Shown here piece after piece: positions 7,743-63,022 of a stretch of 64,000 bases of DNA. A model generated the notes under the pieces. It searched no databases, was not told where the DNA came from, and saw only the letters and a program-made list of their open reading frames with translations. The position numbers and the translations under genes were made by a program. How positions within the stretch are numbered: position 1 is the first letter of the stretch; each line of letters starts with the position of its first letter. The stretch comes from a virus. The stretch is from UHGV virus genome UHGV-1368455; one strand, written 5' to 3'.

Positions 7743-8426
7743 ATGAGCAGTATTGCACAACTTGTTTCAGAGATTGCTCATTCCGTAAAGCAACCTGATA
7801 GTGTTCCTGTTCGTAGAGCTATTAAACTTGGTATAATTCATGCTCGAAACGAAGTCATAAGACGTAGTTTTGCTAATCATAATTATACTGACAAAGTTCT
7901 ACAACAACGTTTTAAACTTACTCTTATTGATGTTCCTGACGGTGACCTTTATGGTTCTGATAAAGTTGTTACATCTCAAGTTAAAAGAACTATTAATAAA
8001 GTTCCTCGTCCTGTAAGACTTACTAATAATCTTCCTTTTCATTCTGTTCGTACTGCTGGTGTACGAAATCCTATTGAAATAGCTTTTGTTAAAGAAGCTA
8101 CTGCTAAATATTATAATGCTCTACCTGGGTTTTGTCCTAATGTTAGTTATGATTATATTAACGAATATATCTATGTGAACTCCCCCGTAGAGGGACAACT
8201 TGCTTCAATTAGTGCTATTATTGTTGAATCTGTATTTGAATATCCTCATATTATAGAAACTGAAACTGTTGAAGGTAAACTTGATATAGATACTATTGAT
8301 GATAATGATGAATTTTTACTACCTGAAGATATGATTACTACTGTTAAACAACTTATTCTTTCTACTTGGAATCCAGATATTATTCGTGATACTAATGAAG
8401 TTCCTACTCCTAATATAGTACAATAA
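7743..8426 (+). CDS. hypothetical virion/tail protein
   Basis: 227 aa; contains in-frame motif copy (SPVEGQ). Confidence 0.55.
   Translation: MSSIAQLVSEIAHSVKQPDSVPVRRAIKLGIIHARNEVIRRSFANHNYTDKVLQQRFKLTLIDVPDGDLYGSDKVVTSQVKRTINKVPRPVRLTNNLPFHSVRTAGVRNPIEIAFVKEATAKYYNALPGFCPNVSYDYINEYIYVNSPVEGQLASISAIIVESVFEYPHIIETETVEGKLDIDTIDDNDEFLLPEDMITTVKQLILSTWNPDIIRDTNEVPTPNIVQ
8178..8197 (+). repeat. GC-rich dispersed motif copy 1 (AACTCCCCCGTAGAGGGACA)
   Basis: Inside CDS 7743..8426, translated SPVEGQ. Confidence 0.9.
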
Positions 8427-9355
8427 TGGTAGTAGATATTAAATTCAAAGACTTTTATCTTCAATTTATTGGTTCTATAAAAGAAAATATTAAAAAAAAT
8501 CAAGAAATAATAGAAGATACTACTAAAAAGCGTGATGAAATCTATAATGAAATTAATAACGCAAAAGATTTACTTAAAGATAAACTTAATATAGAATTAG
8601 ATAAATATACTGAATGGAAAGATAAAATTTATAATTCTACTCTTGCTTTATTCGGCGTTGCATATTATTATATAAATCGAACGAGTGATACAATTATTAA
8701 ACATCATCTCGGTAATATTATTCAGTTTACATATTGTCTAAAAAAGATTTATATGGCTGAACATCGTATTGAAATTAATAATAAAGCAAGTAAACTTACT
8801 TATCGTCAATATACTCTTATAGTAAGTAGTTATTACAATAAAGTTCATAAATTTCTTCTTAATGGTTATGGTTATAAATATCAAGGAGGTATTGGAACTT
8901 TTATTATTAATCATTGGAAATTTGATAATACTAAATCTAAACGTATGGTATTAGATTATAATGCTACTAATAAACGTAAAAAAGAACTTATAGCGAAAGG
9001 TCTAAAACCTTACGATGATAAAGAAGCCGCATGGTATAAAGCTCGTCATATTCCTTATGACGGAATTGATTATAAAGTATATCAAACTAATAGTAGTTAT
9101 TATGAATTTTGTTTTATTAAATCGAGTTTAGTTCATAGTAAACGCGGTTATGATTATAAACGTACTGAATATGTTTCTGCTAAATATAGAGGTATGAGTT
9201 ATCAAAAAATTGCTGATACTTTCGTTAAGAAAGATGAAGATGTTTATGATATGCAATTGGATATTAAATATAAACTTAATATACTTCTATATCGTAATCC
9301 CACAATATATCTAAACTTTGTTCGTAATGCAGAACAAAACCGTTACAAATATTGA
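8426..9355 (+). CDS. hypothetical virion/tail protein
   Basis: 309 aa; TAATG overlap with upstream gene. Confidence 0.55.
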   Translation: MVVDIKFKDFYLQFIGSIKENIKKNQEIIEDTTKKRDEIYNEINNAKDLLKDKLNIELDKYTEWKDKIYNSTLALFGVAYYYINRTSDTIIKHHLGNIIQFTYCLKKIYMAEHRIEINNKASKLTYRQYTLIVSSYYNKVHKFLLNGYGYKYQGGIGTFIINHWKFDNTKSKRMVLDYNATNKRKKELIAKGLKPYDDKEAAWYKARHIPYDGIDYKVYQTNSSYYEFCFIKSSLVHSKRGYDYKRTEYVSAKYRGMSYQKIADTFVKKDEDVYDMQLDIKYKLNILLYRNPTIYLNFVRNAEQNRYKY

Positions 9356-10169
9356 GCGTATAATTGCTAAAATAGACAATGATTTCAATCCTGATAATAG
9401 TGATTGGATTCCTCGTGTTGGAGCATGGTGTATTGACGCAATGTCTATGCTCGATTGTCTTTGTACTAAACGTACTAAGAAAACTATTACTGTTAAAAAC
9501 AGAATAGCTTATGTTGGTTGTCCTATTAATAATATGAATATCAAAATATATGATTCTAATGGTTGTGAAATAGAAGAAGCTAATAATAAGAAATGCGGAT
9601 GTAATAATCCCTCTACGGGGGAGGTTGAACAATCTACAACGACAAAAATTAGTACGGCAGTTAGTCGTTATGAAGCCAATGCGCCTATTACAAAAGCTCC
9701 TGATTATTTATTAGCTGAAACTCTTAATGATAAAGAATGGCCTGGACGTTATAGAATTAATGAATTTAATTATGTTAATGGACAACAAAATATTAATAAA
9801 AATTATGTTATTACTGGAAATGATAAAATAGAACTTAATTTTGATACTAAATGTATTACTCTCGAATATGATACTATTGAAACTGCTCAAACTCAATTTG
9901 GTTGCGAACTTCCAGTTATTCCTAACAATGGAATACTTATTGAAGCTCTAACTTATTATTGTATGTATAAGATGTTATGTAGAGGTTATAAACATCCTGT
10001 ATTTAATCTTGCAGCAAGTCAATATGGTACTAATCCTTATTATATATGGACACAACTTAAAGATGAAGCTAAACGTTCTGTTATAGCTAATAGAGTTGAT
10101 ACTGATGAAGATATTAGTAAAATGTTTCGTAGTGCTTTTTATATTGATACTTTTGACCCTCGTAGATAA
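9327..10169 (+). CDS. hypothetical virion/tail protein (Cys-rich N-terminus)
   Basis: ORF-track start 9318 is TTG; first ATG at 9327. Contains in-frame motif copy (NPSTGEVEQ). Confidence 0.5.
   Translation: MQNKTVTNIERIIAKIDNDFNPDNSDWIPRVGAWCIDAMSMLDCLCTKRTKKTITVKNRIAYVGCPINNMNIKIYDSNGCEIEEANNKKCGCNNPSTGEVEQSTTTKISTAVSRYEANAPITKAPDYLLAETLNDKEWPGRYRINEFNYVNGQQNINKNYVITGNDKIELNFDTKCITLEYDTIETAQTQFGCELPVIPNNGILIEALTYYCMYKMLCRGYKHPVFNLAASQYGTNPYYIWTQLKDEAKRSVIANRVDTDEDISKMFRSAFYIDTFDPRR
9606..9630 (-). repeat. motif copy 2, reverse orientation (AATCCCTCTACGGGGGAGGTTGAAC)
   Basis: Inside CDS 9327..10169, translated NPSTGEVEQ; 23 of 25 nt identical to copy 5. Confidence 0.9.
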
Positions 10170-13100: not shown

Positions 13101-14053
13101 ATAGTATGTTCTTATTTAATGGTACTGATAGTATTGAAGCTAAAGAAAATAATATTCAACTTTCTTCTGTTGATTTTTGGGATACTCAATATAAAGAAAT
13201 TGTTACAAGCGATTTAGGTTATGCCGGACTGCAAAAAGAATACTCTGGTATAGTTGGTAGCTTTGGTTATATATTTTATGATTCTGATAGGCAGCGTTTT
13301 TATCGTTATGATAATGGTCAAGTAGCTTATATTGACGACGATATAAATAATTATATTCGTAAACTTAAAGGATATAATGTTCATCTGGTTGATGATAAAC
13401 GTCGTTATAGAATACTTATTAATTTTAATAAAAATGGTGAAAACGATATAGTTATAAGTTATAACTATCATACTAATACTTTTGTTTCTCGACATACGTA
13501 TAATTATGTTAGAGGATATAGTACTAAAGAAAATACTTATATAATTGGTAAGTATGATGATAATATTGGTAGAACTAATATCAATATTTATAAAGAAGCA
13601 TTATATTACAACTCTGTTGTTAATGTAATGCTTAATGCTAATTATATAAGTATGAAATATATTGAATACATACTTTATAAAGTTGCCAAAGTTACTCCCG
13701 TTGAACTTAACAATTACTCCCCCGTAGAGGGATTGAATGACCTTTATGCTGCTGATGGAGTTCGTGTATATAGTACTCATTGTGATACTGGTGTACTTGA
13801 TACTACTTTCAAAGATGCAACTATCGAAGTTAATAAAGTTATGAATTATGCTAAACCTTATTGGAGATTTGGTAATTGGCATCTTAATGCTCTTCGTAAT
13901 AGACTTGCTGAATATCTACAAAATAAATATGGGGATGATGAATGTAGTCGTATATTTGGTAATTGGTTTGTAGTTGAATTTCATATTAATTCTAACGAGC
14001 AAGTTGAGTTAGAAACTCTCGATGCAGTTTATAATAGTGCTGAAAATAAATGA
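10169..14053 (+). CDS. large tail/baseplate-like structural protein (1294 aa)
   Basis: Long Asn/Tyr-rich ORF in structural block; TAATG and ATGA couplings at both ends; contains motif copy (SPVEG). Confidence 0.65.
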   Translation: MAQIIPKLNLNKHPSEVLNGSLIDATNIIVSNDNAVIQTEPQLDTSDINNQLINLIGSRSYSIKYCINCNKELIIFVLFNDDADNISLYRYNEDYNEIKYVTKTDYHGGELLGTFTYNFNNLIIAFSEYFEDDSKNVPLKTINLGKWNETINDNDVNQLNNSKIHPCNPEVKIPNITTSYVKGNCYKGWYFIFIRYKIDSNTYTQWFNTNEYIFIDTFTNTNLYKSYISSDVKNIGNKKNTWNSFYNYISDDTDISLITLQCDVTNRDTKYKYYQLGFVINRKDTTKCYRSEDIDINNSTFIFNNNLVVEEGLINMINTYTNYYNVKSLTAVGNRLFIGNYKENNFEKDIINSLKNINLSVSFIPSENNTDTQDIETRAEQELTCTVYCTNRTSNNQVNLIAKLWNNQQDGMIYYTGSQMPLVNKNHDDVDIHTMGQCKIKYHYQGKDVTEIVDAKNIIVAPFENKVINGQSNQGRIFILKDGELIEHEPDGPDINTVSLLSFYTNKVFGEIAMSYTNCDFTHTEVGVDGGEIESSTNILNTSGLRPNNPYNFFIHFIDKYGLYTDGFNINNFNLNTSENNFINNIGDKIIITPNDDNSYIAKFVLDNIPEQYVGWFISYEKIERYIKYTGFIGGNGEIQEDSEDASIEINKTSYIAEDIKRDSTNPWQGKRGNNQNFISNELNFLDSIITDFDIARFYNTTVTRTKGNNNIAKLTYNKTDNAYIDIPIISKHLLVADSYNNIGGETKFQLELNGVAEVITYSYIVELIKSDKTNIYNNINKTLIPCSEIKYETGEINVNTKDSFHSEIHVYDYKESTYWNDTLKYFQSSGDSRPVIHPVFCKVQQAFVDIPWESLQINNKPEIIFFPNKGLNTTDEYKKSFIIGTIIEAKNTVDLFQQKNNTVWNACPKTITNYYESKNYAKDYPKTIRRSNIIQDESRNNAWRQFKLEQYKNITENKGDVTKLIAIGYYFIVHCQHSMFLFNGTDSIEAKENNIQLSSVDFWDTQYKEIVTSDLGYAGLQKEYSGIVGSFGYIFYDSDRQRFYRYDNGQVAYIDDDINNYIRKLKGYNVHLVDDKRRYRILINFNKNGENDIVISYNYHTNTFVSRHTYNYVRGYSTKENTYIIGKYDDNIGRTNINIYKEALYYNSVVNVMLNANYISMKYIEYILYKVAKVTPVELNNYSPVEGLNDLYAADGVRVYSTHCDTGVLDTTFKDATIEVNKVMNYAKPYWRFGNWHLNALRNRLAEYLQNKYGDDECSRIFGNWFVVEFHINSNEQVELETLDAVYNSAENK
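13716..13733 (+). repeat. motif copy 3 (ACTCCCCCGTAGAGGGAT); partial half-copy TTACTCCCG at 13693..13701
   Basis: Inside CDS 10169..14053, translated YSPVEGL. Confidence 0.9.
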
Positions 14054-14748: not shown

Positions 14749-16365
14749 ATGACTAAAGTTAAAAGACCTAATATAGTGCGTGGAGGAATTGCTGTTCCTC
14801 TTGGACGTAACTATTATTATATGCGAGGTAGAAAACATGAACAAGGTGGTATTGATATTGGTAAAAATCCTCGTACAGGACTTGAAGTTGAAGACGGTGA
14901 AGTTATGCACGTTGGTTCTAAAGATATTAAAATATTTAGTTCTCTTCCTTTTCTTAATGGTAAATCCCCAGCTCAAAGAGTTATGAGTGGTGAAAATTCT
15001 AATGCTGTTTTTAATGCTCAGGAACGTTTTAAGAAAAGAAATAAGATTAATGATGATGGTACTAAAAAGAAACGTATGGGAGGATTAAATAGAAGTAAAG
15101 ATTATGGTTCAAAATCTAAACCTTATCCTAATGTTAAGAAAAGCGATTTTGCTGGAGGTGGCAGAAGTTATCCTATTCCTACTAAAGCCGACGCTCGTGA
15201 CGCATTAAGACTTGCTGGACTACATCATAGACCTGATGTTAAAGCTAAAGTTTATCGTAAATATCCTGAACTTAGAAAGAAAGCTAAAGTTGGTGGTTTA
15301 TATTCTGTTACAGTTAATGGAGAAACAAAATTATATCAATATCCCTCTACGGGCAAGATAAAGAAGTCTAAAACGACTAAATCGGCTGGACGTTCTAAAT
15401 TTGCTGGAGGAGGTGATACTAAAGATAAAGATAAAGAAAAAGATAAAGTAAAAATTATAACTGCTAAAACTTTTCCTGAAGTTAATCCATTTACTTTTAC
15501 TGAAAATCCTCCTGCTACTACTCCTACCGAAAATGTTGAAGCAACTATTAATGCTAATGTTCCTCGTGCTTTTGCAAAACGTAATAGAGATATAACTGAC
15601 CCAGAAAAACTTAATATTGCTTATCAAAAAGCTTCAGGTACTTATCCTAATTGGTTTCAACGTACTTATAGAAATATAAGAAATTATGTTAATGAACACC
15701 CCGATACTGTCAATGAAGGTATTGGACTTGCAAGTAATGTTGTTTCTTCTCTTATAGGTAATAGTATAAATAGACGAGTGCTCAATAGTCTTCGTTATTC
15801 TCCTGCTCCTATTCCTCAACGTGCTGCAAAACTTAAAACTCGAATCAATATTAATCCTCAACTTGATAGAATGAGAGAAAGTCTTGCTGCTTATGAACGA
15901 GCTATCGATACAAATACTGGTAGTTCTCAAGTTGCTCTGGCTCGCAAACAGAGAGCAAGGTTAGCAAATGTTCTTTCTACTAATGAACTTTATGGTAATA
16001 AAGAAAATACTGAGACTTCTCTTATTAATCAAGATAGACTTAATCAACAAGAAGTTGCTAATAGAAATATTGATGCTTATAATACTTGGGCACAAGGTAA
16101 AGCTGATTTTGAAAATAGTATAAGACAACAAAAAGCTGAAAATAATATTGCTTTGATGAATAATCTTAATGCTGGAGTTCAAAATGTTATTAATAATATT
16201 CAGCAACGTAGAACTGAAGGAAGAAATATTAAAGCAATGCTTCTTGCTTATCCTGATTTACCTGCTGAACAACTTCTTGCTTCTGGTCTGATTACACAGA
16301 ACGAATACGATACTTATCGTAAAGGTTATCCTCTTAAACGTAAAAAGAATAATAATAACGAATAA
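14749..16365 (+). CDS. basic Lys-rich virion-internal (cargo-like) protein
   Basis: 538 aa with KKRNK, GGG, KDKDKEKDK stretches; contains weaker motif copy (PSTGK). Confidence 0.55.
   Translation: MTKVKRPNIVRGGIAVPLGRNYYYMRGRKHEQGGIDIGKNPRTGLEVEDGEVMHVGSKDIKIFSSLPFLNGKSPAQRVMSGENSNAVFNAQERFKKRNKINDDGTKKKRMGGLNRSKDYGSKSKPYPNVKKSDFAGGGRSYPIPTKADARDALRLAGLHHRPDVKAKVYRKYPELRKKAKVGGLYSVTVNGETKLYQYPSTGKIKKSKTTKSAGRSKFAGGGDTKDKDKEKDKVKIITAKTFPEVNPFTFTENPPATTPTENVEATINANVPRAFAKRNRDITDPEKLNIAYQKASGTYPNWFQRTYRNIRNYVNEHPDTVNEGIGLASNVVSSLIGNSINRRVLNSLRYSPAPIPQRAAKLKTRININPQLDRMRESLAAYERAIDTNTGSSQVALARKQRARLANVLSTNELYGNKENTETSLINQDRLNQQEVANRNIDAYNTWAQGKADFENSIRQQKAENNIALMNNLNAGVQNVINNIQQRRTEGRNIKAMLLAYPDLPAEQLLASGLITQNEYDTYRKGYPLKRKKNNNNE
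15341..15354 (-). repeat. motif copy 4, weaker (ATCCCTCTACGGGC)
   Basis: Inside CDS 14749..16365, translated YPSTGK. Confidence 0.6.
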
Positions 16366-19062: not shown

Positions 19063-22000
19063 ATGCCTAATAATGTAATTACAGGAAATTCTTTCGTAGA
19101 TAAAATACGTCCTTATATTCCTAATCCCGAATATAATCCTAAAACCAAGAAAGGTCGTGTTCAACCTCCTATTCTTGTTGATAGTTCTGCTCCAGCTATT
19201 AATGATAACTTTATGTCAAGAACTATGAATAGTGTTAATAGACTTACTTTTACTGGAAGAGAACTTGGTTTTACTAATGAAGAAATAGAGAGTGATGCCG
19301 ATTTAGGCATTACTCTTTCTCCGTATAATACTGTAGATGAACTTAATAAAGCAAGAGCAGATAGTCAATCTGCTCTTTCTCAGTTTGGTAACTTTCTTGC
19401 TCAAGCTGGTTTAGGTGAAGTTCTTGTTGGTACTATGGAAGGATTTGGTAATATCTTTGATGGAGCCAAACAATTTGTTACTGGAGACAATTATGAATCT
19501 TCTGCATGGACTCGTTTTTGGGAAGATATACATAATGATATTAAAGATAAATTTAAGATTTATCGTGAGAACCCTAACGCTGATTGGGACTTGTCTGACT
19601 TTGGTTGGTGGATGGATAATGCTGTCAGTGTTGCTACTACTGCTTCACTTATGATACCTGCTGCTGGTTGGGCAAGAGGTATTTCTATGCTTGGTCGTAT
19701 AGGTAAAATAGGAAAAGGAATTAATGCTGTAACTCGTTGGGCAAGTAAAGGTCTTAGTAATTGGAGCAAAGCCGCAAGAACTGGTAATAAGTATGCTCAA
19801 ATAAGAGCTGCAGCTTCTATTAATAAAACAATTAATAATGCCGCTGAAATAACTGGTACTGCTCTTCTTAGTAGAACAGGTGAAAACTATATGGAAGGTC
19901 GTCAAGTTTATGATGAAGTTTATACTAATAGTAAAGAGAATCTTGATAATATGCCAGATACTGAATTTCAGAAGTTTCTTGCTCGTCATCCTGAATTTAG
20001 AAACCAATCTAAAGATGACATTGCCAAAGAAATAGCTCGTCAATCTGCTAACGAAACTTTTTATAATGATTATTGGATGTTACTTATGGATATTCCTCAG
20101 TTCAAAGCTCTTGGTAGTTTATGGGGAAAACCTATGCAACGTGCTTCTAAAGCGTCTGAACGTATTGCTGCTGAAAATGTTAGACGTACTCTCGCTGGTA
20201 AAAAAGCTGAAGACCTTATAAAAAATAATCTTCTTAATAGAACAAAAGAAGGTTTCAAATATGCTTTCAAACATCCTACTAAAAGTGCTGTCATTACTCA
20301 ACTTGGTGAAGGCTTTGAAGAAATGTATCAAGGTATTCAAAGCGAAAAAGGAATGGAAGTTGCTACTAAATATTTTGACCCATCTTTTACTCCTCGTTCT
20401 CTTACTTCTTATTTTACTGACGGCAGTATATGGGAACAAGGATTTTGGGGTTGGATTGGTGGTATGGCTTTTACTCCTGCCGGACAAGCAATTCAAAAAG
20501 GCTCTCATGCTATTAAAGGTTTATATAATAAAAAACACATGACTGCCGAAGAATATGAACAATGGCAACGTGCTAATCGTAATATAGGAGCTGAAAAAAT
20601 TAATAATGTTACTATTACTGCAAAAGAATTTATTGACAATATGAATAAAATTAACGAAGGAAAAAATCCATTTAATTTTGTTGTCAATAAAGATACTGGT
20701 ACTAAGATTATTAAAGATGGTCAATTAGTTGAAGAAACTATTGACGATGAACAAAAAGAATTACTGAAACAAGAAGCTATTGATAAATTTGTAACAGATA
20801 CAGCTTTCGATGCTATTGATAGTGGTGTTTATCCACTTATGCAAGAAATACTTAATAGTTCTGAATTTGACCAATATCTTACTAAAAATGGTGCTACAGT
20901 TAACGGCAATGATAAAGCTATAAGCAAAGAAATTTCTAATCGTATGGAAGCTATTTCTGATATGTATCAGAACGAACTTCGTAACGTCAATAATCTTACC
21001 GATAAAGCAAATCCATTTGCAACCATTGCTGCTGCTCGTAGTTTAGTTAGAACTAAATTACAATTAGAAGATTATGAAAATCAGTTAGGTAATATCGCTG
21101 CTCGAATGGAAGAAGCTAACGATAACCAAACTGATTTTAATCCTTATATTGAACGTAGAAAATATAATTATGCTAAACGTCAATTAGATAATATTGAAAG
21201 ACAAGAACAAATTATTGCTACTCAATATGCCAATAAAGAAATTGGTGCATCTGCTCGTGACCAATATATGAAAGAACTTGATGCACAAAGAAAAGTATGG
21301 CAAGATTATATTATGAATAATACTTCTAAAGGTGCGATAGAAGAAACTATGAGAACTATTCAGGAAGATGAGAGTATTCCTGATAATATGAAAAAAGATT
21401 TTTATACTATTATGAGAAACTTGGATAAACAAATTGCTTCTGCTACTGAAGTGTCTATTCCAAGTGATACTATTAAAGAACTAATAGATGAAGAAATAAC
21501 TATTGAATCAAGACGTAATTATACGCAAGCTCAACTGCCATTAGATGAAGCTGATTATAAAAATGTTTATAATGAGTTTGCAATGGCTATGGACCAAATG
21601 TATCGTAAACGTATTGATGGAGATATTGATACTGTTAAAAATTATCTTAATAATGCTAAAGATTTAGATGAGGCTATTAATAATGTTCTATCTGAAAATA
21701 CAGGTATTAGTAAAGTCGATAACGCTCTTAAATCTATTCGTTATGGTTATTTTAATCAAAACAAAGATATGAGAGGTCAAATTACTAATAATCTTCAAAT
21801 GGAACTTATTATTGAAGAAGCTCGTAAAAATCGTAAAAAAGCTGAAAATTTACAAGCTGAAGCTGAACAAAGTGGTACTGTTCTTCCTGAAAGCGAAGCT
21901 GGTCAACAACAAGAGCAAGAAGAAGCTGCTATTAATCAACAAGAAACACAAGATGAGAATGGTAATCCCTCTACGGGGGAGGTTGAGCAAACAACAACAG

Positions 22001-25000: not shown

Positions 25001-25776
25001 ATAATGGTAAAATTAATGATGCTTTTTTCAATTCTGTAAATAAAGTTCTCGATACTACACAAAGTTATGACAATCAACAAACTCGTATGGAAGAATTTGT
25101 TGTAGAATGTCTCACTCAACCATTATTTACTGAATGGCTTAATAATACTCAATATGATAATGAAAGTAGTGTTCAAGGTATTAAACAAAGCAAAAAATCT
25201 ATACTGCAAAAATTAATGGATATTTTGCTAAATTTATTTGGTATTAAAGACCGAAAAATAAATGATTTTAGTATCTTAGCACGTGAATATGTAATACTTG
25301 GTAAAGGTAATAATCCTACTACTAATAATGATTTATTTAGTCAACATCTGACTACAACATCGACTGCTGCAAATACTGTCGATACAGATAACACAAACTC
25401 CCCCGTAGAGGGACAGCCGGCATCTCCTACTGCTATTGATAATCAACCGCCTGCTATTAACCCTGCTACTGGTGAAAATGTAGAAACTACTACAAATGAT
25501 TATATTCCTATTGATGAAGACGGTGTATTTACTATGCCTGACGATGAAGATTATGACCCTGCTGATGGTCTTAAAGCTGCTACTGATTTGATTGAAAATA
25601 ATGATACTACTGCTGAAATATATTCTGTTCCTATTGCTGATGGTGCTGATATTAGCACATTTGGCGTTCGGACGGTTAACGATATGAGCGATTTTGTTAA
25701 TACGTTCCCGATGCAATATCGTGCCAATATTAAGCAAATACTGGCTTCTAATGAACTTAACTATACTTGTGCTTAG
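19063..25776 (+). CDS. giant virion protein (2237 aa) with HExxH zincin-like motif
   Basis: Uninterrupted 6.7-kb ORF. HENIH at 24880..24894 within ILHENIHRLF. Carries three motif copies (NPSTGEVEQ, NSPVEGQ). Confidence 0.75.
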   Translation: MPNNVITGNSFVDKIRPYIPNPEYNPKTKKGRVQPPILVDSSAPAINDNFMSRTMNSVNRLTFTGRELGFTNEEIESDADLGITLSPYNTVDELNKARADSQSALSQFGNFLAQAGLGEVLVGTMEGFGNIFDGAKQFVTGDNYESSAWTRFWEDIHNDIKDKFKIYRENPNADWDLSDFGWWMDNAVSVATTASLMIPAAGWARGISMLGRIGKIGKGINAVTRWASKGLSNWSKAARTGNKYAQIRAAASINKTINNAAEITGTALLSRTGENYMEGRQVYDEVYTNSKENLDNMPDTEFQKFLARHPEFRNQSKDDIAKEIARQSANETFYNDYWMLLMDIPQFKALGSLWGKPMQRASKASERIAAENVRRTLAGKKAEDLIKNNLLNRTKEGFKYAFKHPTKSAVITQLGEGFEEMYQGIQSEKGMEVATKYFDPSFTPRSLTSYFTDGSIWEQGFWGWIGGMAFTPAGQAIQKGSHAIKGLYNKKHMTAEEYEQWQRANRNIGAEKINNVTITAKEFIDNMNKINEGKNPFNFVVNKDTGTKIIKDGQLVEETIDDEQKELLKQEAIDKFVTDTAFDAIDSGVYPLMQEILNSSEFDQYLTKNGATVNGNDKAISKEISNRMEAISDMYQNELRNVNNLTDKANPFATIAAARSLVRTKLQLEDYENQLGNIAARMEEANDNQTDFNPYIERRKYNYAKRQLDNIERQEQIIATQYANKEIGASARDQYMKELDAQRKVWQDYIMNNTSKGAIEETMRTIQEDESIPDNMKKDFYTIMRNLDKQIASATEVSIPSDTIKELIDEEITIESRRNYTQAQLPLDEADYKNVYNEFAMAMDQMYRKRIDGDIDTVKNYLNNAKDLDEAINNVLSENTGISKVDNALKSIRYGYFNQNKDMRGQITNNLQMELIIEEARKNRKKAENLQAEAEQSGTVLPESEAGQQQEQEEAAINQQETQDENGNPSTGEVEQTTTANTDTTIATDNTNLERAESQQAQATVGAPEQEVETRQTGHEHDVNPMQVDVAQDEAEVQRKLAQTIDANSLRAELAARKYVMQIGFKEGAKLDAITQALQNKDESKLAEFIQEITDFLTKQGFDDDISKIMAQRALVSTINMYGAMNEKSAFGRLATQLAIGLNEAAAKKYSATELINGKGLDEVVDAFMEEFVKVTNNLKLSNGKYIINLKTLFNYLIHNESIDGKTAVQIYNNLNEYIASSVNTKYIFTGYDTKRGLYQTGEEFIHQVEEQRKQEISSRNQMHIHLIEPEQRNKEFNDAMLAAANGAPSHIEEQRNKAGELTNLNVIVDWEKNGKKKSTKIGILRTVHYSQDARKIYPNSHYSGFRNEITRNDDGTVSLDCDNLFYAICDATTTDGFNLRNAIADYFEKRLALLQDESLTPAGLNKALNALITPEFISSIVDNPLIEELINQGRYKPYVEAEDIEDIHDDEKSMRRLTAIRLAEDISKVLFYADGYAENNVASEVNDFAVDSYTLRERYKTWKDKVYDNYTHTYELQKAINNNENKSATINVNVGFVTRLNEAPEDSQPNIADQDFNPIPNTDGYTPFVYYSNGKLVDEYGNDYGYAPSGFGDYSMGFIVHTDGVQSFIAACRTTANVKNTKMHKAVIAEVADIITAQINNINNSNHADNFNVVKERLEELFGPGGLFYFGNINLVTDSNERFITIQYKQGRGKDAKYTNITTFHSINKDGITPSNAITIYDNAGKVLTNITSINAETQGILNKLTQTLTDNFVINRSQIGMTKQTKSGGTPRIFTWNGENFIVHLGAKDYTYKNYGDFIFQTAGFTTNLVSKNGSFVTRYIDTRHVTMDTHINKKQKITQKANTAVSDYLYNERNPKRKTADTEEILKRAGVPQEKIDILLGTNSKIPFVTKQISLSNVDDGKTNAFYNKKDKKIYITPRGASVMNGSSTNAIRIILHENIHRLFNSSKYTNAERQRIVTELEDVYNFVRQKFIEEHDNGKINDAFFNSVNKVLDTTQSYDNQQTRMEEFVVECLTQPLFTEWLNNTQYDNESSVQGIKQSKKSILQKLMDILLNLFGIKDRKINDFSILAREYVILGKGNNPTTNNDLFSQHLTTTSTAANTVDTDNTNSPVEGQPASPTAIDNQPPAINPATGENVETTTNDYIPIDEDGVFTMPDDEDYDPADGLKAATDLIENNDTTAEIYSVPIADGADISTFGVRTVNDMSDFVNTFPMQYRANIKQILASNELNYTCA
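21964..21988 (-). repeat. motif copy 5, reverse orientation, near-identical 25-mer to copy 2
   Basis: Inside CDS 19063..25776, translated NPSTGEVEQ. Confidence 0.9.
25396..25414 (+). repeat. motif copy 6 (AACTCCCCCGTAGAGGGACA)
   Basis: Inside CDS 19063..25776, translated NSPVEGQ; shares 20 nt with copy 1. Confidence 0.9.
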
Positions 25777-40545: not shown

Positions 40546-40570
40546 AATCAATCACAATTAAAGTGCATCC

Positions 40571-40594
40571 ATCCCTATACGGGGGAGTTCGACG
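40571..40594 (-). repeat. motif copy 10, reverse orientation, intergenic (ATCCCTATACGGGGGAGTTCGACG)
   Basis: Left arm of inverted pair in gap 40546..40704. Confidence 0.85.
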
Positions 40595-40655
40595 ATTAAT
40601 ACCGACAATAACAATAGTATTAATCGCCGTAATAGCACTAGACGTTATTGACGTT

Positions 40656-40678
40656 GGGCTACCCCGTAGAGGGATAAA
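40656..40678 (+). repeat. motif copy 11, intergenic (GGGCTACCCCGTAGAGGGATAAA)
   Basis: Right arm of inverted pair; 61-bp interior. Confidence 0.9.
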
Positions 40679-45102: not shown

Positions 45103-45348
45103 TTAACGTCTTTTACGAGGTTCTGCATAACGATATTTAGGAGAAAGATATTCGCAACCTTTTATATTTTCTCTATTTTGATTAAGATGTACTTTAACAA
45201 ATTTATAACCACCACCAAAATAGACTAAACGCATAGAACTATCACGTTTATGTTCTTGTTCTCTACGAGAAAGTTTAGGACGAACATACATAGCTTTTTT
45301 TGCCATCAATTTCATCATCTCTTTGTTTAATTCAAATGTCTTTTTCAT
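45103..45348 (-). CDS. basic hypothetical protein (81 aa)
   Basis: Lys/Arg-rich. Confidence 0.4.
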   Translation of the reverse strand: MKKTFELNKEMMKLMAKKAMYVRPKLSRREQEHKRDSSMRLVYFGGGYKFVKVHLNQNRENIKGCEYLSPKYRYAEPRKRR

Positions 45349-45364: not shown

Positions 45365-46180
45365 TTAATTATGTTTATTTTTAAGTTCTTCTTCTGCTTC
45401 ATTCACATCATTAGGAATAATATTAAAAGCGCTTTTACCAACAATACTTTCTATTTTAATAAGATTGAGTTTATACTTTTGGCTAAGTTTAATAAATTCA
45501 GCACTATCATCTCGTGTAAAAGTAATAAATCCATTAATTCCGTCATCAGAACCTATTTCATAACAATCAAGTATAATAGTATTCTTTGGAGCATATTTAT
45601 GTTCATCAATATTTACTTGTTTTATTTGACAGCAACTTAAATAATCTCCTGTAAAACGAAGATTAGCATCAACAAGCCAAGTACCTCCAGACCAAGTAGT
45701 ATTATTACCTTGTATAAAATTAGTATCATTCCAACCTTTATGATATTTAATACGTTTACTAAACGAATCAATATCCTCTATAATAACAGTACCATCTTCA
45801 TTAATACGTTTGAATATACTACTTTTTCTCTTGTTTTGATAATTTTTTCTTCCTTTATCATCTTTATAAATAAAATGAAATTCATCATCCTTAAGAGTAA
45901 GAGGGGCAATAGGTTCAAACTTACAAAGTTTTTGAACAAGATTAATTTCAAAAGGAGCACTAAAACCTCTATTACCATGACTACTGAAAACAGCAAGAGC
46001 TTCCATTACTTGTTCATACATCCAACTATTTGGATTATCTTTTTGTCCAGGTTTATAACCAGCAAGACGGAGTTCATAATCTCCATGTCTACAAATATTA
46101 CTATGAGCGATAATATATTGAAGAGCTTTCTTATTAATAAGACATTTACGCATCTTCTTATCTTTTCTTCTACTTACCAT
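45365..46180 (-). CDS. hypothetical protein, paralogue of 43184..43915
   Basis: 271 aa; shared PLTLKDDEF block. Confidence 0.5.
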   Translation of the reverse strand: MVSRRKDKKMRKCLINKKALQYIIAHSNICRHGDYELRLAGYKPGQKDNPNSWMYEQVMEALAVFSSHGNRGFSAPFEINLVQKLCKFEPIAPLTLKDDEFHFIYKDDKGRKNYQNKRKSSIFKRINEDGTVIIEDIDSFSKRIKYHKGWNDTNFIQGNNTTWSGGTWLVDANLRFTGDYLSCCQIKQVNIDEHKYAPKNTIILDCYEIGSDDGINGFITFTRDDSAEFIKLSQKYKLNLIKIESIVGKSAFNIIPNDVNEAEEELKNKHN

Positions 46181-47234: not shown

Positions 47235-47982
47235 ATCTTGCAATTATATTTTGATAAACGTCCAAAACTTTATAAAATAAATTAAATAAAGTAGTATTAT
47301 TAGTAATAGTATATTCGCAATCAATATCAATTTGTTCAGATATATGTATGGAATTGTCATCGTTGTGATTATTTTTTTCACGAGTGACCATAATAACTCC
47401 CCCGTAGAGAGGATGTTGTTGTATGGTTTTAGCTTCATTCGTAAATCTAACATCTGGAATAAGACAAATACCATACAAACGATTAATATTGTCAACTTTA
47501 TTCATAGTAGCTCGTATCCAAATGTCGTCACCAAGATATTTTCTACATATATCAGTTCCAAAAAATTGTAATATAGTTCTAATTTTTATAACACGAAGTT
47601 TTTTAGTATTTTCTAATTGATAACTAAAATATTCAGGAGAATTAACAAGAGAACTATATTCAATAATCTTATAAACTTCTTGATGATGAATTACATCTTT
47701 ACAATCATAAAATTTGCAATTATCAATACAAAAGAAAGAATTATCTTTATAGTATTCATCATCAAGATATTCTCTTGGTATATTATAAATAGCAGATACA
47801 CAATCTCTAAGAGCGTCGGCAAAATGAACAGATTTACGTTTAGCTCTATCTTTATTAGAAACTCTATTAGCAATCCATTCTTGATAATTAGCTTTAGTAA
47901 CTCCAACAGTGTGTATATAAGCAATCATATTAGCAATGGTATCTTTGCCAGATTGTTTTTTACCACATATTCCAATAATCAT
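47209..47982 (-). CDS. P-loop dNMP kinase-like protein (T4 gp1-like)
   Basis: Walker A GICGKKQSGKDTIANMI matches the T4 dNMP kinase SGVKRSGKDT. Carries motif copy encoding HPLYGGVIM. Confidence 0.5.
   Translation of the reverse strand: MIIGICGKKQSGKDTIANMIAYIHTVGVTKANYQEWIANRVSNKDRAKRKSVHFADALRDCVSAIYNIPREYLDDEYYKDNSFFCIDNCKFYDCKDVIHHQEVYKIIEYSSLVNSPEYFSYQLENTKKLRVIKIRTILQFFGTDICRKYLGDDIWIRATMNKVDNINRLYGICLIPDVRFTNEAKTIQQHPLYGGVIMVTREKNNHNDDNSIHISEQIDIDCEYTITNNTTLFNLFYKVLDVYQNIIARYENNKTKR
47395..47414 (+). repeat. motif copy 12, variant (AACTCCCCCGTAGAGAGGAT)
   Basis: Inside minus-strand dNMP kinase-like gene, read as HPLYGGVIM. Confidence 0.85.
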
Positions 47983-50681: not shown

Positions 50682-51174
50682 GTTTAAGTCTATGTTTACC
50701 TGTTTTATAAACTATAATACGTTTAGGTTTACCAATAAGACAATGACAATAAGCAAACCAAAGAATTGCATCCCATGTTTGAAACATTTTAGGTTTTCTA
50801 TCAATAGTAGTAGCAATACCAGTTTCATAATCAAAATTAGAATAAATCCAATTACCACGTTCATCAACAAGATTGAATTTTTCAATAATATCTAAATCGT
50901 CATCACTATCCAAATCTATTTCTCCATACATATAAATATCTTTTTGATTTATGATAGTACCATCTTTTCTTTCATAACGAGTAACACCAAAATATTTAGA
51001 CGATTTATCTATCCTATTTTCTTCTTCTTCGGTAATTGCTTCCATAACAACAGTAAAAGCGACTTTATTATCATTAGAACGGCAAAGAGTTATTGTTCCC
51101 GTCCGTATCCCTAACAGGTTTATTGTCTTCTCTTTTACTTTGTAATTCATTCGTTTTAATATATTTGATAGCAT
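50656..51174 (-). CDS. hypothetical protein (172 aa; start uncertain, alternative ATG at 51150)
   Basis: Overlaps the 3' end of the primase ORF by ~77-100 nt in another frame. Confidence 0.4.
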   Translation of the reverse strand: MLSNILKRMNYKVKEKTINLLGIRTGTITLCRSNDNKVAFTVVMEAITEEEENRIDKSSKYFGVTRYERKDGTIINQKDIYMYGEIDLDSDDDLDIIEKFNLVDERGNWIYSNFDYETGIATTIDRKPKMFQTWDAILWFAYCHCLIGKPKRIIVYKTGKHRLKHDDIKDKL

Positions 51175-52300
51175 CTATTATTAGTTCATAAACATTATTA
51201 ATAGGAATAGATTTAACTAAATCAGCAAAATCTTTTGCTTTATATTTTTTATTAATAAGAAAAGGCTCGATTCCAAAATTACGTTTAAGCCAAATAGCTT
51301 CACGTTTACCAGTACTATCATTATCCATTAAAGATACAATACTTCCATTGATAGATTTATTTTTAAGCCAATCATATTCATTTTGACGAAGACGATAAGT
51401 TTCATGAGGAATATTTATAACTCCAACTCGCATCTTATCAATATAGCCGATATTGTCAATACGAACTCCCCCGTAGAGGGATAATGCTTGCTTTATTGTG
51501 CATCCTAAGCTAACTCTATCTTTTGTAGACTTAGTAAGTACAATAATATCATAATCATTTCTGTTAAGATTATAAATACCTTCGAGATGATTACAATTAG
51601 TTATAAATCTATCTTGACCTTTCTTACGTTTAGGAAAATATAATTTAATATTATATATACCATTTCTATCAATACCAAGGTTATAACCATAACAAGGGTC
51701 TTTTATGGTATAATAATATTTAGGTTCTGGATTAACTTTTCGATTAATATAATATTGTTCAACAGGATAAATAAAATTAATATTAAGAAAAGAAATAGAA
51801 ACATTAAATTGTTTCCAATATTCTATATCTTGATTATTCCAATCTCTAACAACAAGTTCTATTACTGGCTTTTTACGTTTAATATTTGCAATAGCAGTAT
51901 TAATGGAATTAATAAGAGTAATGTCTTTTTCTTGTCCATAAAATATATCCTTAAATGTAAAAGTAATATGCCTAAGAACTTTAATAAAATCATTTTTATT
52001 AGATATATCATAAGGTTTACTATACATTTCAGACATAATATAAGCAACAGTATCAAAACAATCGCCCCAAAATCCATCATTACCAAAATCCTTAAATTTA
52101 AGTTTTCCTTTATTATTATATCTAAAACCAGCAGTAGGATGAACGTCTACACGAAGAGGATTACAAATAAGTTCTCCAGTATCTATACAACGTTGTATTT
52201 GTTCAATAGGAATACCAAGATATGTAGCAAAAATATTAACTTGTGATACTTTTTCAAGTATCATTTGTTTAGTAAGTCGAGAACTATTTATATTTCTCAT
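51074..52300 (-). CDS. DNA primase with TOPRIM domain (DnaG-like)
   Basis: TOPRIM DxD motif in LMDNDSTGKREAIW. ORF-track start 52372 is TTG and would overlap the upstream terminator, so ATG at 52300 (MRNINSS...) is preferred. Carries motif copy (ALSLYGGVRI). Confidence 0.5.
   Translation of the reverse strand: MRNINSSRLTKQMILEKVSQVNIFATYLGIPIEQIQRCIDTGELICNPLRVDVHPTAGFRYNNKGKLKFKDFGNDGFWGDCFDTVAYIMSEMYSKPYDISNKNDFIKVLRHITFTFKDIFYGQEKDITLINSINTAIANIKRKKPVIELVVRDWNNQDIEYWKQFNVSISFLNINFIYPVEQYYINRKVNPEPKYYYTIKDPCYGYNLGIDRNGIYNIKLYFPKRKKGQDRFITNCNHLEGIYNLNRNDYDIIVLTKSTKDRVSLGCTIKQALSLYGGVRIDNIGYIDKMRVGVINIPHETYRLRQNEYDWLKNKSINGSIVSLMDNDSTGKREAIWLKRNFGIEPFLINKKYKAKDFADLVKSIPINNVYELIIDAIKYIKTNELQSKREDNKPVRDTDGNNNSLPF
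51462..51484 (+). repeat. motif copy 14 (CGAACTCCCCCGTAGAGGGATAA)
   Basis: Inside minus-strand primase gene, read as LSLYGGVR. Confidence 0.9.
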
Positions 52301-52306
52301 CGGTAC

Positions 52307-52354
52307 AAATAAAAAAATAGGGAGCAACCGCATCCGAAGATACAGCCACTCCCT
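52307..52354 (-). terminator. intrinsic terminator/attenuator after SSB-like gene (GGGAG...CTCCC outer stem, inner 5-bp stem with UUCG tetraloop, then UAUUUUUUUAUUUG)
   Basis: Read on the minus strand of 52307..52354; U-run ends 6 nt before primase ATG. Confidence 0.5.
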
Positions 52355-52374
52355 TAATTTAAGCACTAACAATA

Positions 52375-56735: not shown

Positions 56736-59090
56736 TTAATCGAAGTCTTCATCATCAAAAAGAGATTGATATTGACCACTCATTTGTTTAAGGAGTGCTT
56801 TACCACTTTTAGTACCTTTATTTTTATCTCCTTTCATATTAGGAGAAATACGTAGTTTGATAGGGTCAATAATTTTAAGAGCTTCTTTATAATAATAATT
56901 ATAATTAATATTTCTAAACTCTATTCGCTTATCATCGAGAGAATTAAGAATTTGAACTTTTTGTCCAGCACATAAACCATTCTTAGCAAAACTATCATTG
57001 TGAACTTTATAAATAAATCCACCTTGACTAGAAGCATAAAATCTTACATATCTTTGCATAGGAATAATTTTAGTACCTTCAATATATTCAACATGAAATT
57101 GCTTACCAACATTTTGTGTAAGACAAAAATCAAGAATATTCTTACTATTATAAAGAGTTTCAAGTACAGGAATACCTTTGAAATAATTAACAACAGCACG
57201 AGCAACAATTGGCATAGAATAACCTTTTGATAAATCTTTAAGATACATAAATTCATTTAATGCACCTTTCGCATCAGTTTTACCATTAAGTTCTTCTACA
57301 AAATAGTTATTAATATCTCTATTAATATAATAAAGATATTCTTCACTATCTGCATCAAGACCAGTTAATTTCTTCCAATCAGCGGCAATTTTATCAAAAG
57401 TATCTTTTTTAGATTTATATAGTTTCACAACTATACCATCTGTATTAGCACTTATAACTTCAATACCATTAAGCTCAAGTTCTTCACATAGCATCATAAT
57501 CATTAACTGACCATTAATAGTAACTTTGAGAGTGGCCATTCTATCAAATAAATCCCCTTTCTCAAAACCAAATTTACCATAAATAGAATTAATGACAATT
57601 TTTAATACTTGAGCAAGCACATCAGATGGAATACCATCAATAGGTTCATTACTATGTTTAGCTTTAATACGAGTATCTTTAATCCAAGTTACAAGTTTAG
57701 TAAAAACACTTTCAATCATGTGTTTAGGAGCAATATGATATACAGACATAATAGAAGGATAAAAGCTACTTATATCCCAATGTACATAAATATAACTATC
57801 ATCAGCAATATGTTCCCAAATACTGTCGTTCTTGTTCGTAGCAATCTCTCTAATTCGTTCTATCTCCCCCGTAGAGGGATAATCGGTGAACATTATTTTA
57901 CTTTTGAGTTCTCTTGGCGTATCTTGACTATGTAAACCGCCAGTTGCAATAGTATAAGTAAGATTACCTAATTTTACTTCACGAATGAACGCATCTTTAC
58001 CAACACTATATACAACAACTTTCTTCATATCTGCAAGCAAATCTTGAAGAGGTTTAGTCTTAAATTGAATAAACGGAAAAATAACACGTTTGAAAGCCAT
58101 AGCAGTACGTTCAGTCTTTTGTCCACGCCATTGTTCAGGAGCAAGACCACTAAACTCACTGTAAAACTTAATAAACATTTTATCCGCAATATTACTTCGA
58201 GAACTACTAAGAACATCTATTTTATAAGCACGAGAAATACTATAACGCAATTTAATTTCATCCATGTAAAGTCTAATCATTTCGCATACAATGAAAACAT
58301 CATTTGCATTATAATACATAGTAGGTTCAATCCATTCGTCGATAATATATCTATCCCACTTTTCAACAAGTCTATTAACTTTATCTGCAGGAAGACCTTT
58401 TAATGTAAGATTATTTTGATATAAATGAATATCTTTATCGCTAATTGGAGGAAGCTCATATTCAAGAATTTCATACCATTGTAAATTAATAGAAGTCTGT
58501 TTAAGACCTTTACCAAAATAAATAGTATCTCCTTTCTGATTTTTACCTTTACCAACTTTATTAAGTGCAAAGATAGTCATAATATCAATATCTACATAAG
58601 GTAGCTTATTCTTTTTAAGATTGGCAAGAAGATAATCATGACGAGCAAGTTCTTCATTATCTTGCATACTAATAATATGTTTACTCAACTCATATAATTT
58701 AGTAATAAGTTCTTTTGTTGAATTAACTTGATTAGCCCACATAAGTAAACCACTAACCATAAGTTTATCATATTTAGAACTATTATAACCAAACATATCA
58801 GTACGAATAGCTTTTCCATCATCATCAACAAATGGACGCATATTATTAATAGTTGCAAGCATTTGAAGTAATTGACTATCGTCTTTATCAGTAATATAAA
58901 AAGAACAACGTTTAACAATAGCAAGTCGTTCTTTAATTTCTTTTACAGTAAGTTTTTGAACGAGAGGAATAGGTTTACCTTTCTCGTTTACACAATCAGC
59001 AAATACTCTTAGATAATCATTAACATCAGTAATAGTAATGCTAAAGAAGTTAGGTAAAACTTCAACATCGTAAGAACGAGAAAGTATCAT
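56736..59090 (-). CDS. polB: family B DNA polymerase with 3'-5' exonuclease
   Basis: Exo I YDVEV; motif A DISSFYPSIM; motif B KIVINSIYGKFG; motif C ISANTDGIVV. Carries motif copy (DYPSTGEIERI). Confidence 0.9.
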   Translation of the reverse strand: MILSRSYDVEVLPNFFSITITDVNDYLRVFADCVNEKGKPIPLVQKLTVKEIKERLAIVKRCSFYITDKDDSQLLQMLATINNMRPFVDDDGKAIRTDMFGYNSSKYDKLMVSGLLMWANQVNSTKELITKLYELSKHIISMQDNEELARHDYLLANLKKNKLPYVDIDIMTIFALNKVGKGKNQKGDTIYFGKGLKQTSINLQWYEILEYELPPISDKDIHLYQNNLTLKGLPADKVNRLVEKWDRYIIDEWIEPTMYYNANDVFIVCEMIRLYMDEIKLRYSISRAYKIDVLSSSRSNIADKMFIKFYSEFSGLAPEQWRGQKTERTAMAFKRVIFPFIQFKTKPLQDLLADMKKVVVYSVGKDAFIREVKLGNLTYTIATGGLHSQDTPRELKSKIMFTDYPSTGEIERIREIATNKNDSIWEHIADDSYIYVHWDISSFYPSIMSVYHIAPKHMIESVFTKLVTWIKDTRIKAKHSNEPIDGIPSDVLAQVLKIVINSIYGKFGFEKGDLFDRMATLKVTINGQLMIMMLCEELELNGIEVISANTDGIVVKLYKSKKDTFDKIAADWKKLTGLDADSEEYLYYINRDINNYFVEELNGKTDAKGALNEFMYLKDLSKGYSMPIVARAVVNYFKGIPVLETLYNSKNILDFCLTQNVGKQFHVEYIEGTKIIPMQRYVRFYASSQGGFIYKVHNDSFAKNGLCAGQKVQILNSLDDKRIEFRNINYNYYYKEALKIIDPIKLRISPNMKGDKNKGTKSGKALLKQMSGQYQSLFDDEDFD
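57861..57885 (+). repeat. motif copy 16 (TATCTCCCCCGTAGAGGGATAATCG)
   Basis: Inside minus-strand polB, read as DYPSTGEI. Confidence 0.9.
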
Positions 59091-61020: not shown

Positions 61021-61029
61021 AAAAACATA

Positions 61030-62134: not shown

Positions 62135-62205
62135 TTGGAGTAAGAGGATTCGAACCTCTACTAACAGAATCAAAATCTGTGGTGCTACCGTTACACTATA
62201 CTCCA
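62135..62205 (-). tRNA. tRNA-Gln (anticodon UUG)
   Basis: Minus-strand sequence TGGAGTATAGTGTAACGGTAGCACCACAGATTTTGATTCTGTTAGTAGAGGTTCGAATCCTCTTACTCCA. 7-bp acceptor stem; D arm GTGT/GCAC; anticodon stem ACAGA/TCTGT with loop TTTTGAT; T arm AGAGG-TTCGAAT-CCTCT. Confidence 0.75.
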
Positions 62206-62376
62206 ATATTATCATCTATATTACTTAATACACCATACATTAACAATAACATATTTAGTATCATGATATGACGTTCAAAAAACATAATTAGACTTTATAG
62301 AAAGTTGCATACAAAGGCATTTAGTAGCAACAAGACTAAATAGTCTACATTTCATATAGATGATAATAGTAATATC

Positions 62377-62841: not shown

Positions 62842-62920
62842 CTAAATCAGTATCAAAGGCTTCACTATGAATAGCAATACCATCATCTTCATAAATGTTA
62901 TTCATACGAGATAGAATTAA

Positions 62921-62940
62921 ATACCCCGTAGAGAAGATAA
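62921..62940 (+). repeat. motif copy 17, variant, intergenic (ATACCCCGTAGAGAAGATAA)
   Basis: Left arm of second inverted pair in gap 62842..63023. Confidence 0.75.
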
Positions 62941-63000
62941 CTGTGTTTATTGCAACTTTACTAATAATAGTATGGCACTAAGCAACAACTAAACATTAAT

Positions 63001-63022
63001 AATCCCTCTACGGGGTAGATTT
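63001..63022 (-). repeat. motif copy 18, reverse orientation, intergenic (AATCCCTCTACGGGGTAGATTT)
   Basis: Right arm of second inverted pair; 60-bp interior; ends 1 nt before stop of 63024..63632. Confidence 0.9.

Follow-up and report, generated by a model that had tools for sequence, protein, structure and literature searches.

A strongly selected, family-wide DNA word dispersed through the genomes of Intestiviridae crAss-like phages

The window and its dispersed motif

We analyzed a stretch of 64,000 nt from the UHGV virus genome UHGV-1368455 (hereafter the window), which belongs to a crAss-like phage of the Intestiviridae and carries many dispersed copies of a short GC-rich motif. The window has a GC content of ~30% and shows patchy nucleotide identity of ~70% to Carjivirus communis, the prototype crAssphage (p-crAssphage, BK010471), with which it is syntenic from gp57 to gp06 in reversed orientation. 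Its genes are located on the plus strand up to ~40 kb and on the minus strand beyond. Among the viruses of the human gut, crAss-like phages are the most abundant, and to our knowledge the signals for their replication, transcription and packaging are almost unknown.

The 12-mer CCCCGTAGAGGG was found in 11 exact copies in the window, compared to 0.00 copies expected from 100 dinucleotide shuffles. Allowing ≤2 mismatches yielded 18 sites in total (0 expected), ten of them on the plus and eight on the minus strand (Table 1). A position-weight matrix derived from these 18 sites scores them at 20–39 bits, while the next best matches in the window reach 8.9 and 8.6 bits. The consensus of all 18 copies is A.CTCCCCCGTAGAGGGAT. 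Flanking positions are highly conserved as well, with A at position -5 in 15, C at -3 in 17, T at -2 in all 18 and A at +12 in 16 copies; the conserved unit in this genome comprises ~20 bp, A.CTCCCCCGTAGAGGGATA. Most of what the initial annotation had noted from the sequence was borne out: at least 18 dispersed copies on both strands, extreme enrichment and a split into ten forward and eight reverse copies were all recovered, and the ten positions it listed as exact are all among the 11 exact CCCCGTAGAGGG copies. Its coordinates for variant copies hold within 2–5 bp; one of these supposed variants, listed at 63001, matches the 12-mer exactly and is located at 63004 on the minus strand. Orientation had been described as unlinked to transcription, and indeed the 14 sites located in long open reading frames (ORFs) comprise seven in sense and seven in antisense orientation. 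Conservation of the flanks, on the other hand, holds for the window genome and not for the family: in 51 IMG/VR loci, defined as regions around DNA polymerase genes 53–68% identical, the ~14 bp of the family core YYCCCCGTAGAGGA are the sole conserved columns once near-duplicates are removed.

Conservation, spread and spacing of the motif

Nine of the 18 window sites have a counterpart in p-crAssphage in the same gene and in the same orientation, with paired sites within 0–14 alignment columns of each other. These orthologous sites are located in gp50, gp47, gp45, the giant RNA polymerase (RNAP) gene, the ligase, primase-like, SNF2 and DNA polymerase genes and in the gap after gp06, where window site 63004 is orthologous to p-crAssphage 3335. 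Anchored on the core, the nine pairs are ~100% identical over 11–12 nt, while identity drops to 30% and 38% in the flanking 50 nt on the two sides, as expected for unrelated AT-rich DNA. All nine have been kept at protein identities of 30–55%, and their positions predate the genus-level divergence. The site in the DNA polymerase gene is kept in 45 of the 51 related loci despite unalignable flanks, and single copies are kept for as long as paired copies. Within proteins, the sites map to loops that are variable and rich in indels, which gives the impression that the word occupies stretches where the protein can accommodate it.

The 14 copies in long ORFs are translated in four different frames (SPVEG, LPRRG, PSTGE and S/PLYGG) and lie in both orientations relative to the gene, which rules out a peptide or codon artefact. 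As the core does not vary even where codon positions are degenerate, while its flanks are randomized, and is read in four frames, we conclude that it is a signal at the DNA level and not a codon or peptide effect. The initial annotation had itself named two trivial origins, a codon or amino-acid bias shared with related phages and base composition; related genomes have a similar density of the motif, yet its conservation acts on the DNA and not on the peptide, and the dinucleotide shuffles dispose of the second.

A miniature selfish element had also been put forward. Such an element, inserting into genes in the manner of miniature inverted-repeat transposable elements, repetitive extragenic palindromes (REP), yeast mitochondrial GC clusters or Rickettsia palindromic elements, would agree with a GC-rich word in an AT-rich genome that occurs in several frames, and with some inverted pairs that resemble terminal repeats ~100 bp apart. 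Phages with and without a given copy differ, however, by substitutions within colinear alignments and show no indels. Window site 29225, for example, reads LPRRG where the related locus L009 has IINNK, and p-crAssphage has PVED where the window has PLIK, in both cases without change in length. Lineage-specific copies have thus arisen by substitution and not by insertion. Positions that have been orthologous since before the genus-level divergence, the lack of target-site duplications, the lack of a transposase among the 20 window proteins scanned and an even spacing, which is not expected of such an element, leave this explanation largely refuted. An intragenic inverton between close inverted copies is not supported: the window is colinear with L009 at 28776–29225, and no antisense ORF spans the region.

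Regarding the spread of the motif, p-crAssphage contains 32 copies of CCCCGTRGAGG, 18 on the plus and 14 on the minus strand, with the consensus GAC(C/T)CCCCGT(A/G)GAGGATGGA. The cultured Bacteroides phage crAss002, also a member of the Intestiviridae and assigned to another subfamily, carries ~31 copies of the variant TCCCCC(G/A)TA(A/G)AGG (TCCCCCRTARAGG; 14 plus, 17 minus). The 51 IMG/VR loci comprise 316 sites, one per 3.3 kb. The flanks of the motif differ by phage lineage, comparable to dialects, which suggests a reader that co-evolves with the phage. Taken together, the motif is a strongly selected, family-wide DNA signal. Its presence throughout the family including p-crAssphage, its many orthologous positions and its regular same-strand spacing go beyond the initial annotation. 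No description of the motif was found in the literature, including a full-text search for the sequence itself, which does not prove that nobody has noticed it.

The Intestiviridae word was not found in crAss001 (Steigviridae, MH675552). This phage has a dispersed 9-mer of its own, CTTCTGGAG, with 14 exact copies in the first 50 kb compared to 0.5 expected (~27 per 100 kb). It is present on both strands and inside genes and is regularly spaced on the minus strand (coefficient of variation, CV, 0.47, P=0.001). On the complementary strand its CTCCA(G/C) core is common to the p-crAssphage variant CCTCCACGGGG; in the window the 9-mer is not enriched. Some p-crAssphage copies (28077, 93667 and 95865, and also 6022, 44953 and 58727) show a GC-rich upstream extension of 30 nt, GACCCGCT...CGCTA.ACT, with CGCT-type repeats, and in three intergenic copies the extension contains a stem of 4–6 bp with a 3-nt loop ~15 nt upstream. 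An extended element of 55 bp was considered for the window, where TTG.CG.T.TAGAT occurs upstream and T at +27 in 17 of 18 copies, and was rejected since neither is conserved in the family. Of this extended element the downstream pyrimidine bias alone persists in the window and the 51 loci: in the window the tract 5–40 nt downstream on the motif strand has a pyrimidine fraction of 0.589 vs. 0.508 (P=1e-4), and in the 51 loci it accompanies sense and antisense sites alike.

In a search of 185,579 bacterial and archaeal species, one genome each, the 17-mer gave 18 matches, all singletons at chance level, and no genome was enriched. A host-derived repeat or a host Chi sequence is ruled out for the 17-mer by this result. 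Two contigs from metagenome-assembled genomes (MAGs) of 'Bacilli' (L021 and L036, 26% GC, 38–42 kb) contain the exact 17-mer together with a second copy; they probably represent contigs of crAss-like phages that were wrongly assigned to bacterial MAGs.

A phage-borne counterpart of Chi, i.e. a 'self' signal for a translocating helicase-nuclease or recombination machine that protects phage DNA or stimulates recombination at breaks, appears rather unlikely. Its copies on each strand would halt or alter an enzyme moving in one direction. The even coverage of the strands, both orientations and the high copy number would fit, and the phage encodes RecT, a Gam-like inhibitor, an SNF2 helicase and a DnaB-like helicase. 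Moreover, phages that are otherwise ~97% identical (L043, L046, L048, L050, L052, L059, L065 and L067) differ by a dimorphic patch of ~130 bp, including a 33-bp indel, that starts exactly beside the motif copy in the DNA polymerase gene, ~1.3 kb into the gene, and resembles a conversion tract that has one of its ends at the motif site. Against a Chi-like role, Chi sites are 5–8 nt long and over-represented in the host, whereas the motif comprises 10–14 nt and is phage-specific; crAss001 and crAss002 both infect Bacteroides, yet their words differ; and no RecBCD- or AddAB-like enzyme was identified. A recombination hotspot is not supported either, as close relatives, in a reference-based BLAST comparison, diverge by 1.10 times the mean in the vicinity of sites (±100 bp) vs. 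0.99 ± 0.17 at random positions (P=0.26). In ~19 of the 51 loci (L043, L046, L050, L052, L060, L062, L064, L065 and others) the DNA polymerase match spans ~3.3–3.5 kb vs. ~2.3–2.4 kb, which suggests an insertion of ~1 kb (intron, intein or homing endonuclease) downstream of the motif site.

We found that copies on the same strand are located ~5–7 kb apart, with significantly regular spacing (P≤0.005) on five of the six strands tested when compared to random placement (CV ~0.83–0.93). On the plus strand of the window the gaps range from 3.8 to 6.7 kb with one double gap (CV 0.36, P=0.002), on its minus strand from 5.7 to 9.3 kb, again with one double gap (CV 0.26, P=0.001). In p-crAssphage they range from 2.1 to 8.4 kb on the plus strand (CV 0.31, P<5e-5) and from 1.9 to 14.3 kb on the minus strand (CV 0.50, P=0.005), and on the minus strand of crAss002 from 2.0 to 10.9 kb (CV 0.40, P<5e-5). 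Pooling the strands makes the spacing much less regular (CV 0.68), which, in comparison with the lower per-strand values, indicates that strand identity matters; the alternation between strands (13 of 17 and 21 of 31 transitions) follows from the same-strand regularity. Only about half of the sites are orthologous, and where the genomes differ the same-strand series are mutually shifted. This regular same-strand spacing is a new finding.

Intergenic copies, inverted pairs and neighboring genes

Non-coding DNA makes up only 6.6% of the p-crAssphage genome, but 11 of the 32 copies are located in intergenic regions (P=4e-6); in the window alone the intergenic enrichment is not significant. Intergenic copies often form inverted pairs at a distance of 27–120 bp, mostly in convergent orientation, which could fold as long stems. 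The window pair 40573/40662 lies ~600 bp from the convergent switch in gene orientation and 22 bp upstream of ORF 40078–40551. As single-stranded DNA it is predicted to form a long-range stem (-26.5 kcal/mol, z = -5.1), and the pair 62924/63004 another long stem (-23.1 kcal/mol, z = -5.6). The p-crAssphage pair 28077/28173 is the positional counterpart of 40573/40662, and the crAss002 pair 64739/64776 also adjoins a convergent switch. In p-crAssphage two pairs are located at the two switch points of gene orientation, directly upstream of the two RepL genes. RepL is nevertheless a weak candidate for the reader of the motif, since the window ORF in the equivalent position, 40078–40551, is not RepL and tblastn detected none in the window.

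The strong folding of the intergenic pairs, together with a near-perfect 14-bp stem between two genes at p-crAssphage 22901/22928, would agree with an element acting in RNA, with the pairs as transcript hairpins (terminator, processing site or stabilizer) and the single copies as relics. We consider this very unlikely: 14 of the 18 window copies are single, intragenic and as often sense as antisense, conservation of single copies reaches as far back as that of pairs, no T-runs follow the pairs, and an Rfam scan of the window gave a tRNA as the sole match and no known RNA family at the motif. The folding of single copies (-0.2 to -3.4 kcal/mol) does not surpass that of shuffled sequences, and the lengths of the C-run and G-run do not covary (C6 occurs with G2, C3 with G3), so that the mini-hairpin from complementary arms proposed in the initial annotation was discarded. 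Promoters of N4-type virion RNAPs have a stem of 5–7 bp with a 3-nt loop and are located upstream of early genes in sense orientation; such a hairpin promoter was rejected for the motif, whose core has no hairpin and half of whose sites are antisense. For phage phi14:2 it has been reported that early transcripts have no common upstream motif and that the virion RNAP prefers single-stranded DNA (bioRxiv 10.1101/2020.03.07.982082).

In another reading, a phage-encoded regulator would bind each asymmetric site as a monomer and control transcription globally, the sites forming a dispersed array of operators or roadblocks, as known for the stoperators of cluster A mycobacteriophages and the C1 operators of P1. 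An asymmetric word of 12–14 bp with ~30 copies per genome, the fivefold intergenic enrichment and some bivalent inverted pairs just upstream of genes, as in the case of ORF 40078–40551, speak for such an array. It is nonetheless unlikely, because orientation is independent of transcription (sense and antisense are balanced at 10 to 11 in p-crAssphage, as at 7 to 7 in the window), most copies lie deep in genes at conserved positions, and regular same-strand spacing is not expected. A scan of 20 proteins from the window, which covers part of the genome, revealed neither a helix-turn-helix nor a repressor family.

Other features of the window are included in Table 1. The giant RNAP gene consists of a single ORF, whose homologue in crAssphage is gp44, the fused virion RNAP gene. 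The ORF that matches Tad3 and its neighbor are candidate anti-defense genes in the replication module. Two possible decayed motif copies on the minus strand are weak and may have arisen by chance.

Table 1. Motif copies and other features of the window (positions in nt; p-crAssphage positions refer to BK010471)
Coordinates	Strand	Core	Context	Remarks
8178..8198	+	8183-8194	sense, gp52-like gene, read SPVEG	38.7 bits
9605..9625	-	9609-9620	antisense, gp50-like tail tubular gene	orthologue p-crAssphage 58727
13715..13735	+	13720-13731	sense, gp49-like gene	lineage-specific, no indel vs. p-crAssphage
15339..15359	-	15343-15354, GCCCGTAGAGGG	antisense, gp47-like gene	orthologue p-crAssphage 51406
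21963..21983	-	21967-21978	antisense, gp45-like gene	orthologue p-crAssphage 44953
25396..25416	+	25401-25412	sense, gp45-like gene near 3' end	
28772..28792	-	28776-28787, ...GAGAG	antisense, giant RNAP gene (SLYGG)	orthologues in L009 and p-crAssphage 39092
29220..29240	+	29225-29236	sense, RNAP gene (LPRRG)	not in L009 or p-crAssphage, length unchanged
35085..35105	+	35090-35101	sense, RNAP gene	common to L009, not p-crAssphage
40569..40677	- and +	40573-40584 (-), 40662-40673 (+)	inverted pair in 153-bp gap between ORFs 40078-40551 and 40705-41076	
47395..47415	+	47400-47411	antisense, deoxynucleoside monophosphate kinase-like gene	position common to locus L004
49821..49841	-	49825-49836	sense, DNA ligase gene	orthologue p-crAssphage 18157
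51464..51484	+	51469-51480	antisense, primase-like gene	orthologues p-crAssphage 16626 and L014
56245..56265	-	56249-56260, TCCCGTAGAGGA	sense, SNF2 ATPase gene	orthologue p-crAssphage 11765
57862..57882	+	57867-57878	antisense, family B DNA polymerase gene	orthologue p-crAssphage 10169; 45/51 related loci
62919..63020	+ and -	62924-62935 (+), degenerate, 20 bits; 63004-63015 (-)	convergent inverted pair in gap 62842-63023, downstream of gp06-like gene	
45259..45270	-	AACTTTCTCGTAGAGAA	possible decayed copy, in longest minus-strand gap	8.6 bits
53257..53268	-	AAGTAACTCGTAGAGGT	possible decayed copy	8.9 bits
25808-39976	+		giant RNAP ORF, 4722 amino acids	~650 amino acids longer than p-crAssphage protein
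40705-41076	-		ORF between intergenic pair and N4 gp49-like gene	Pfam DUF4406 match (E 2e-6)
43184-43915	-		ORF, neighbor of Tad3-matching ORF	weak match (5.8e-4)
45365-46180	-		ORF, 271 amino acids	Pfam Tad3 match, type I Thoeris inhibitor (E 7.5e-29)
51074..52372	-		primase-like gene, divergent	PHROG 12622 match (E 8.5e-75); no Pfam or PDB match
62135-62205	-		tRNA gene, ~700 bp from intergenic motif pair	Rfam 67.4 bits

Possible function and comparison with known systems

An asymmetric and phage-specific word with lineage-specific flanks, equally present on both strands, independent of transcription, conserved in position and evenly covering each strand, points to a co-evolving factor of the phage. 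We infer that the reader is a phage-encoded protein that tells the two strands apart. The initial annotation had listed several explanations without choosing among them: a recognition site for something specific to the phage is supported, given that bacterial genomes are not enriched in the word and its flanks vary by phage lineage, while the selfish element and the mini-hairpin are not.

As even coverage is expected if each stretch of a strand needs a reachable site, we favor a role in the strand-specific initiation of DNA synthesis, with the motif as a start signal for priming or nicking, and assign it a probability of roughly 0.3. A phage-encoded factor that distinguishes the strands would read the motif as a cis-acting recognition word, and purifying selection would maintain ~30 copies per genome at places where a protein loop or an intergenic gap can accommodate one, in an arrangement of one copy per 5–7 kb on each strand. 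A copy would act as a sequence-specific priming site for the atypical primase of this lineage or as the site of a site-specific nick that provides a 3'-OH, in either case for the neighboring stretch of the strand on which it lies. The convergent intergenic pairs near the switch points of gene orientation could then act as bidirectional, origin-like sites. The divergent primase-like protein, whose gene itself carries a copy, is named as a candidate reader by inference only.

Several points weigh against strand-specific initiation. Known primases read 3–5 nt, compared to 10–14 nt for the motif, and the known single-strand initiation (ssi) signals of plasmids are hairpins, while single motif copies do not fold. 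One copy per ~6 kb and strand is sparse for the initiation of Okazaki fragments. The plus strand of crAss002 shows no significant regularity (gaps 0.8–20.9 kb, CV 0.74, P=0.21), and the spacing tests are not fully independent of each other, because the genomes are related and many sites orthologous. The adjacency of pairs to RepL does not generalize, given that the window ORF next to the pair is a different gene, and the downstream pyrimidine tract is not seen in p-crAssphage.

Alternatively, the motif could mark programmed interruptions of single strands that play no part in priming, i.e. nicks carried by the packaged DNA of virions, as is the case for T5, phiKMV-like and tf-like phages. Nick-associated motifs are short, run through coding and non-coding DNA and are conserved within families, with a function that is not established; WACTRTGAC, for instance, has 13 sites and is conserved in ~60 Pseudomonas phages, and in the described cases all sites are on one strand (PMC11780129). 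The motif studied here is likewise strand-specific, conserved and regularly spaced. Its sites are, however, divided between plus and minus strand at 10 to 8 in the window, 18 to 14 in p-crAssphage and 14 to 17 in crAss002, and nicks at convergent pairs 27–120 bp apart would give staggered double-strand breaks. Nicking of virion DNA without priming therefore seems improbable to us.

In broader terms than initiation of DNA synthesis, it is conceivable, although short of probable, that the Intestiviridae, and at least crAss001 in another dialect (CTTCTGGAG), share a genome-wide, strand-specific and evenly spaced 'punctuation code' that is written through the genes and read by a phage machine. Such a machine would be, for example, one for sequence-programmed initiation of DNA synthesis or for programmed nicking on both strands. 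If true, this would be a principle of phage genome organization without a described counterpart; if the sites are nick or priming marks, the nicked phage genomes that have been a puzzle for 50 years would come to include a system with evenly spaced sites on both strands. Because a 14-bp word is held at orthologous places every 5–7 kb per strand while the surrounding codons are randomized, the motif offers a tangible entry point to a central DNA transaction in crAss-like phages. The question is directly testable, as the cultured phage crAss002 carries ~31 copies. In practical terms, the motif is a signature by which Intestiviridae contigs can be recognized.

Compared with known systems, the likeness to the nick motifs of T5, phiKMV-like, tf and Rembedalsseter-like phages consists in a short, strand-specific word with a dozen or more dispersed copies throughout a family. 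In those phages nicks have been physically shown and lie on one strand, whereas here both strands are used equally, close inverted pairs occur and the word is longer, with 10–14 nt. The ssiA and ssiB signals of RSF1010, which act with the replicon-encoded primase RepB', are strand-specific starts within hairpins of ~40 nt, two per replicon. Their arrangement as an opposite-strand pair at the origin resembles the intergenic inverted pairs at switch points, and the regular spacing per strand would fit such signals; single motif copies, in contrast, are unstructured 14-mers present ~30 times per genome.

REP sequences and bacterial interspersed mosaic elements are extragenic, hairpin-forming palindromes that are abundant in host chromosomes and associated with RAYT transposases. 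The motif shares GTAG/GTGG with them, as well as the potential of its inverted intergenic pairs to form stems, but 14 of 18 copies are found within genes, a single copy is not a palindrome and the 17-mer is not enriched in bacteria. Stoperators and C1 operators are asymmetric sites of 13–17 bp, ~20–30 per genome, bound by one phage protein and in part arranged as bivalent inverted pairs; they are intergenic, oriented with transcription and found in temperate phages with a known repressor. The motif falls in the same size class, is asymmetric and has ~20–30 or more dispersed copies, but is mostly intragenic, oriented independently of transcription and regularly spaced on each strand. Chi and KOPS are words of 5–8 nt in the host genome, skewed with the direction of replication and read by a translocating machine in one orientation. 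The motif resembles them as a selected oligonucleotide that is tolerated in genes in several frames at about one copy per few kb, and differs in its length of 10–14 nt, its phage specificity and its lack of skew. The known systems closest to the motif are the nick motifs of phages, arrays of dispersed operators and words of the Chi type; for each of them, a defining feature was tested here that the motif does not share.

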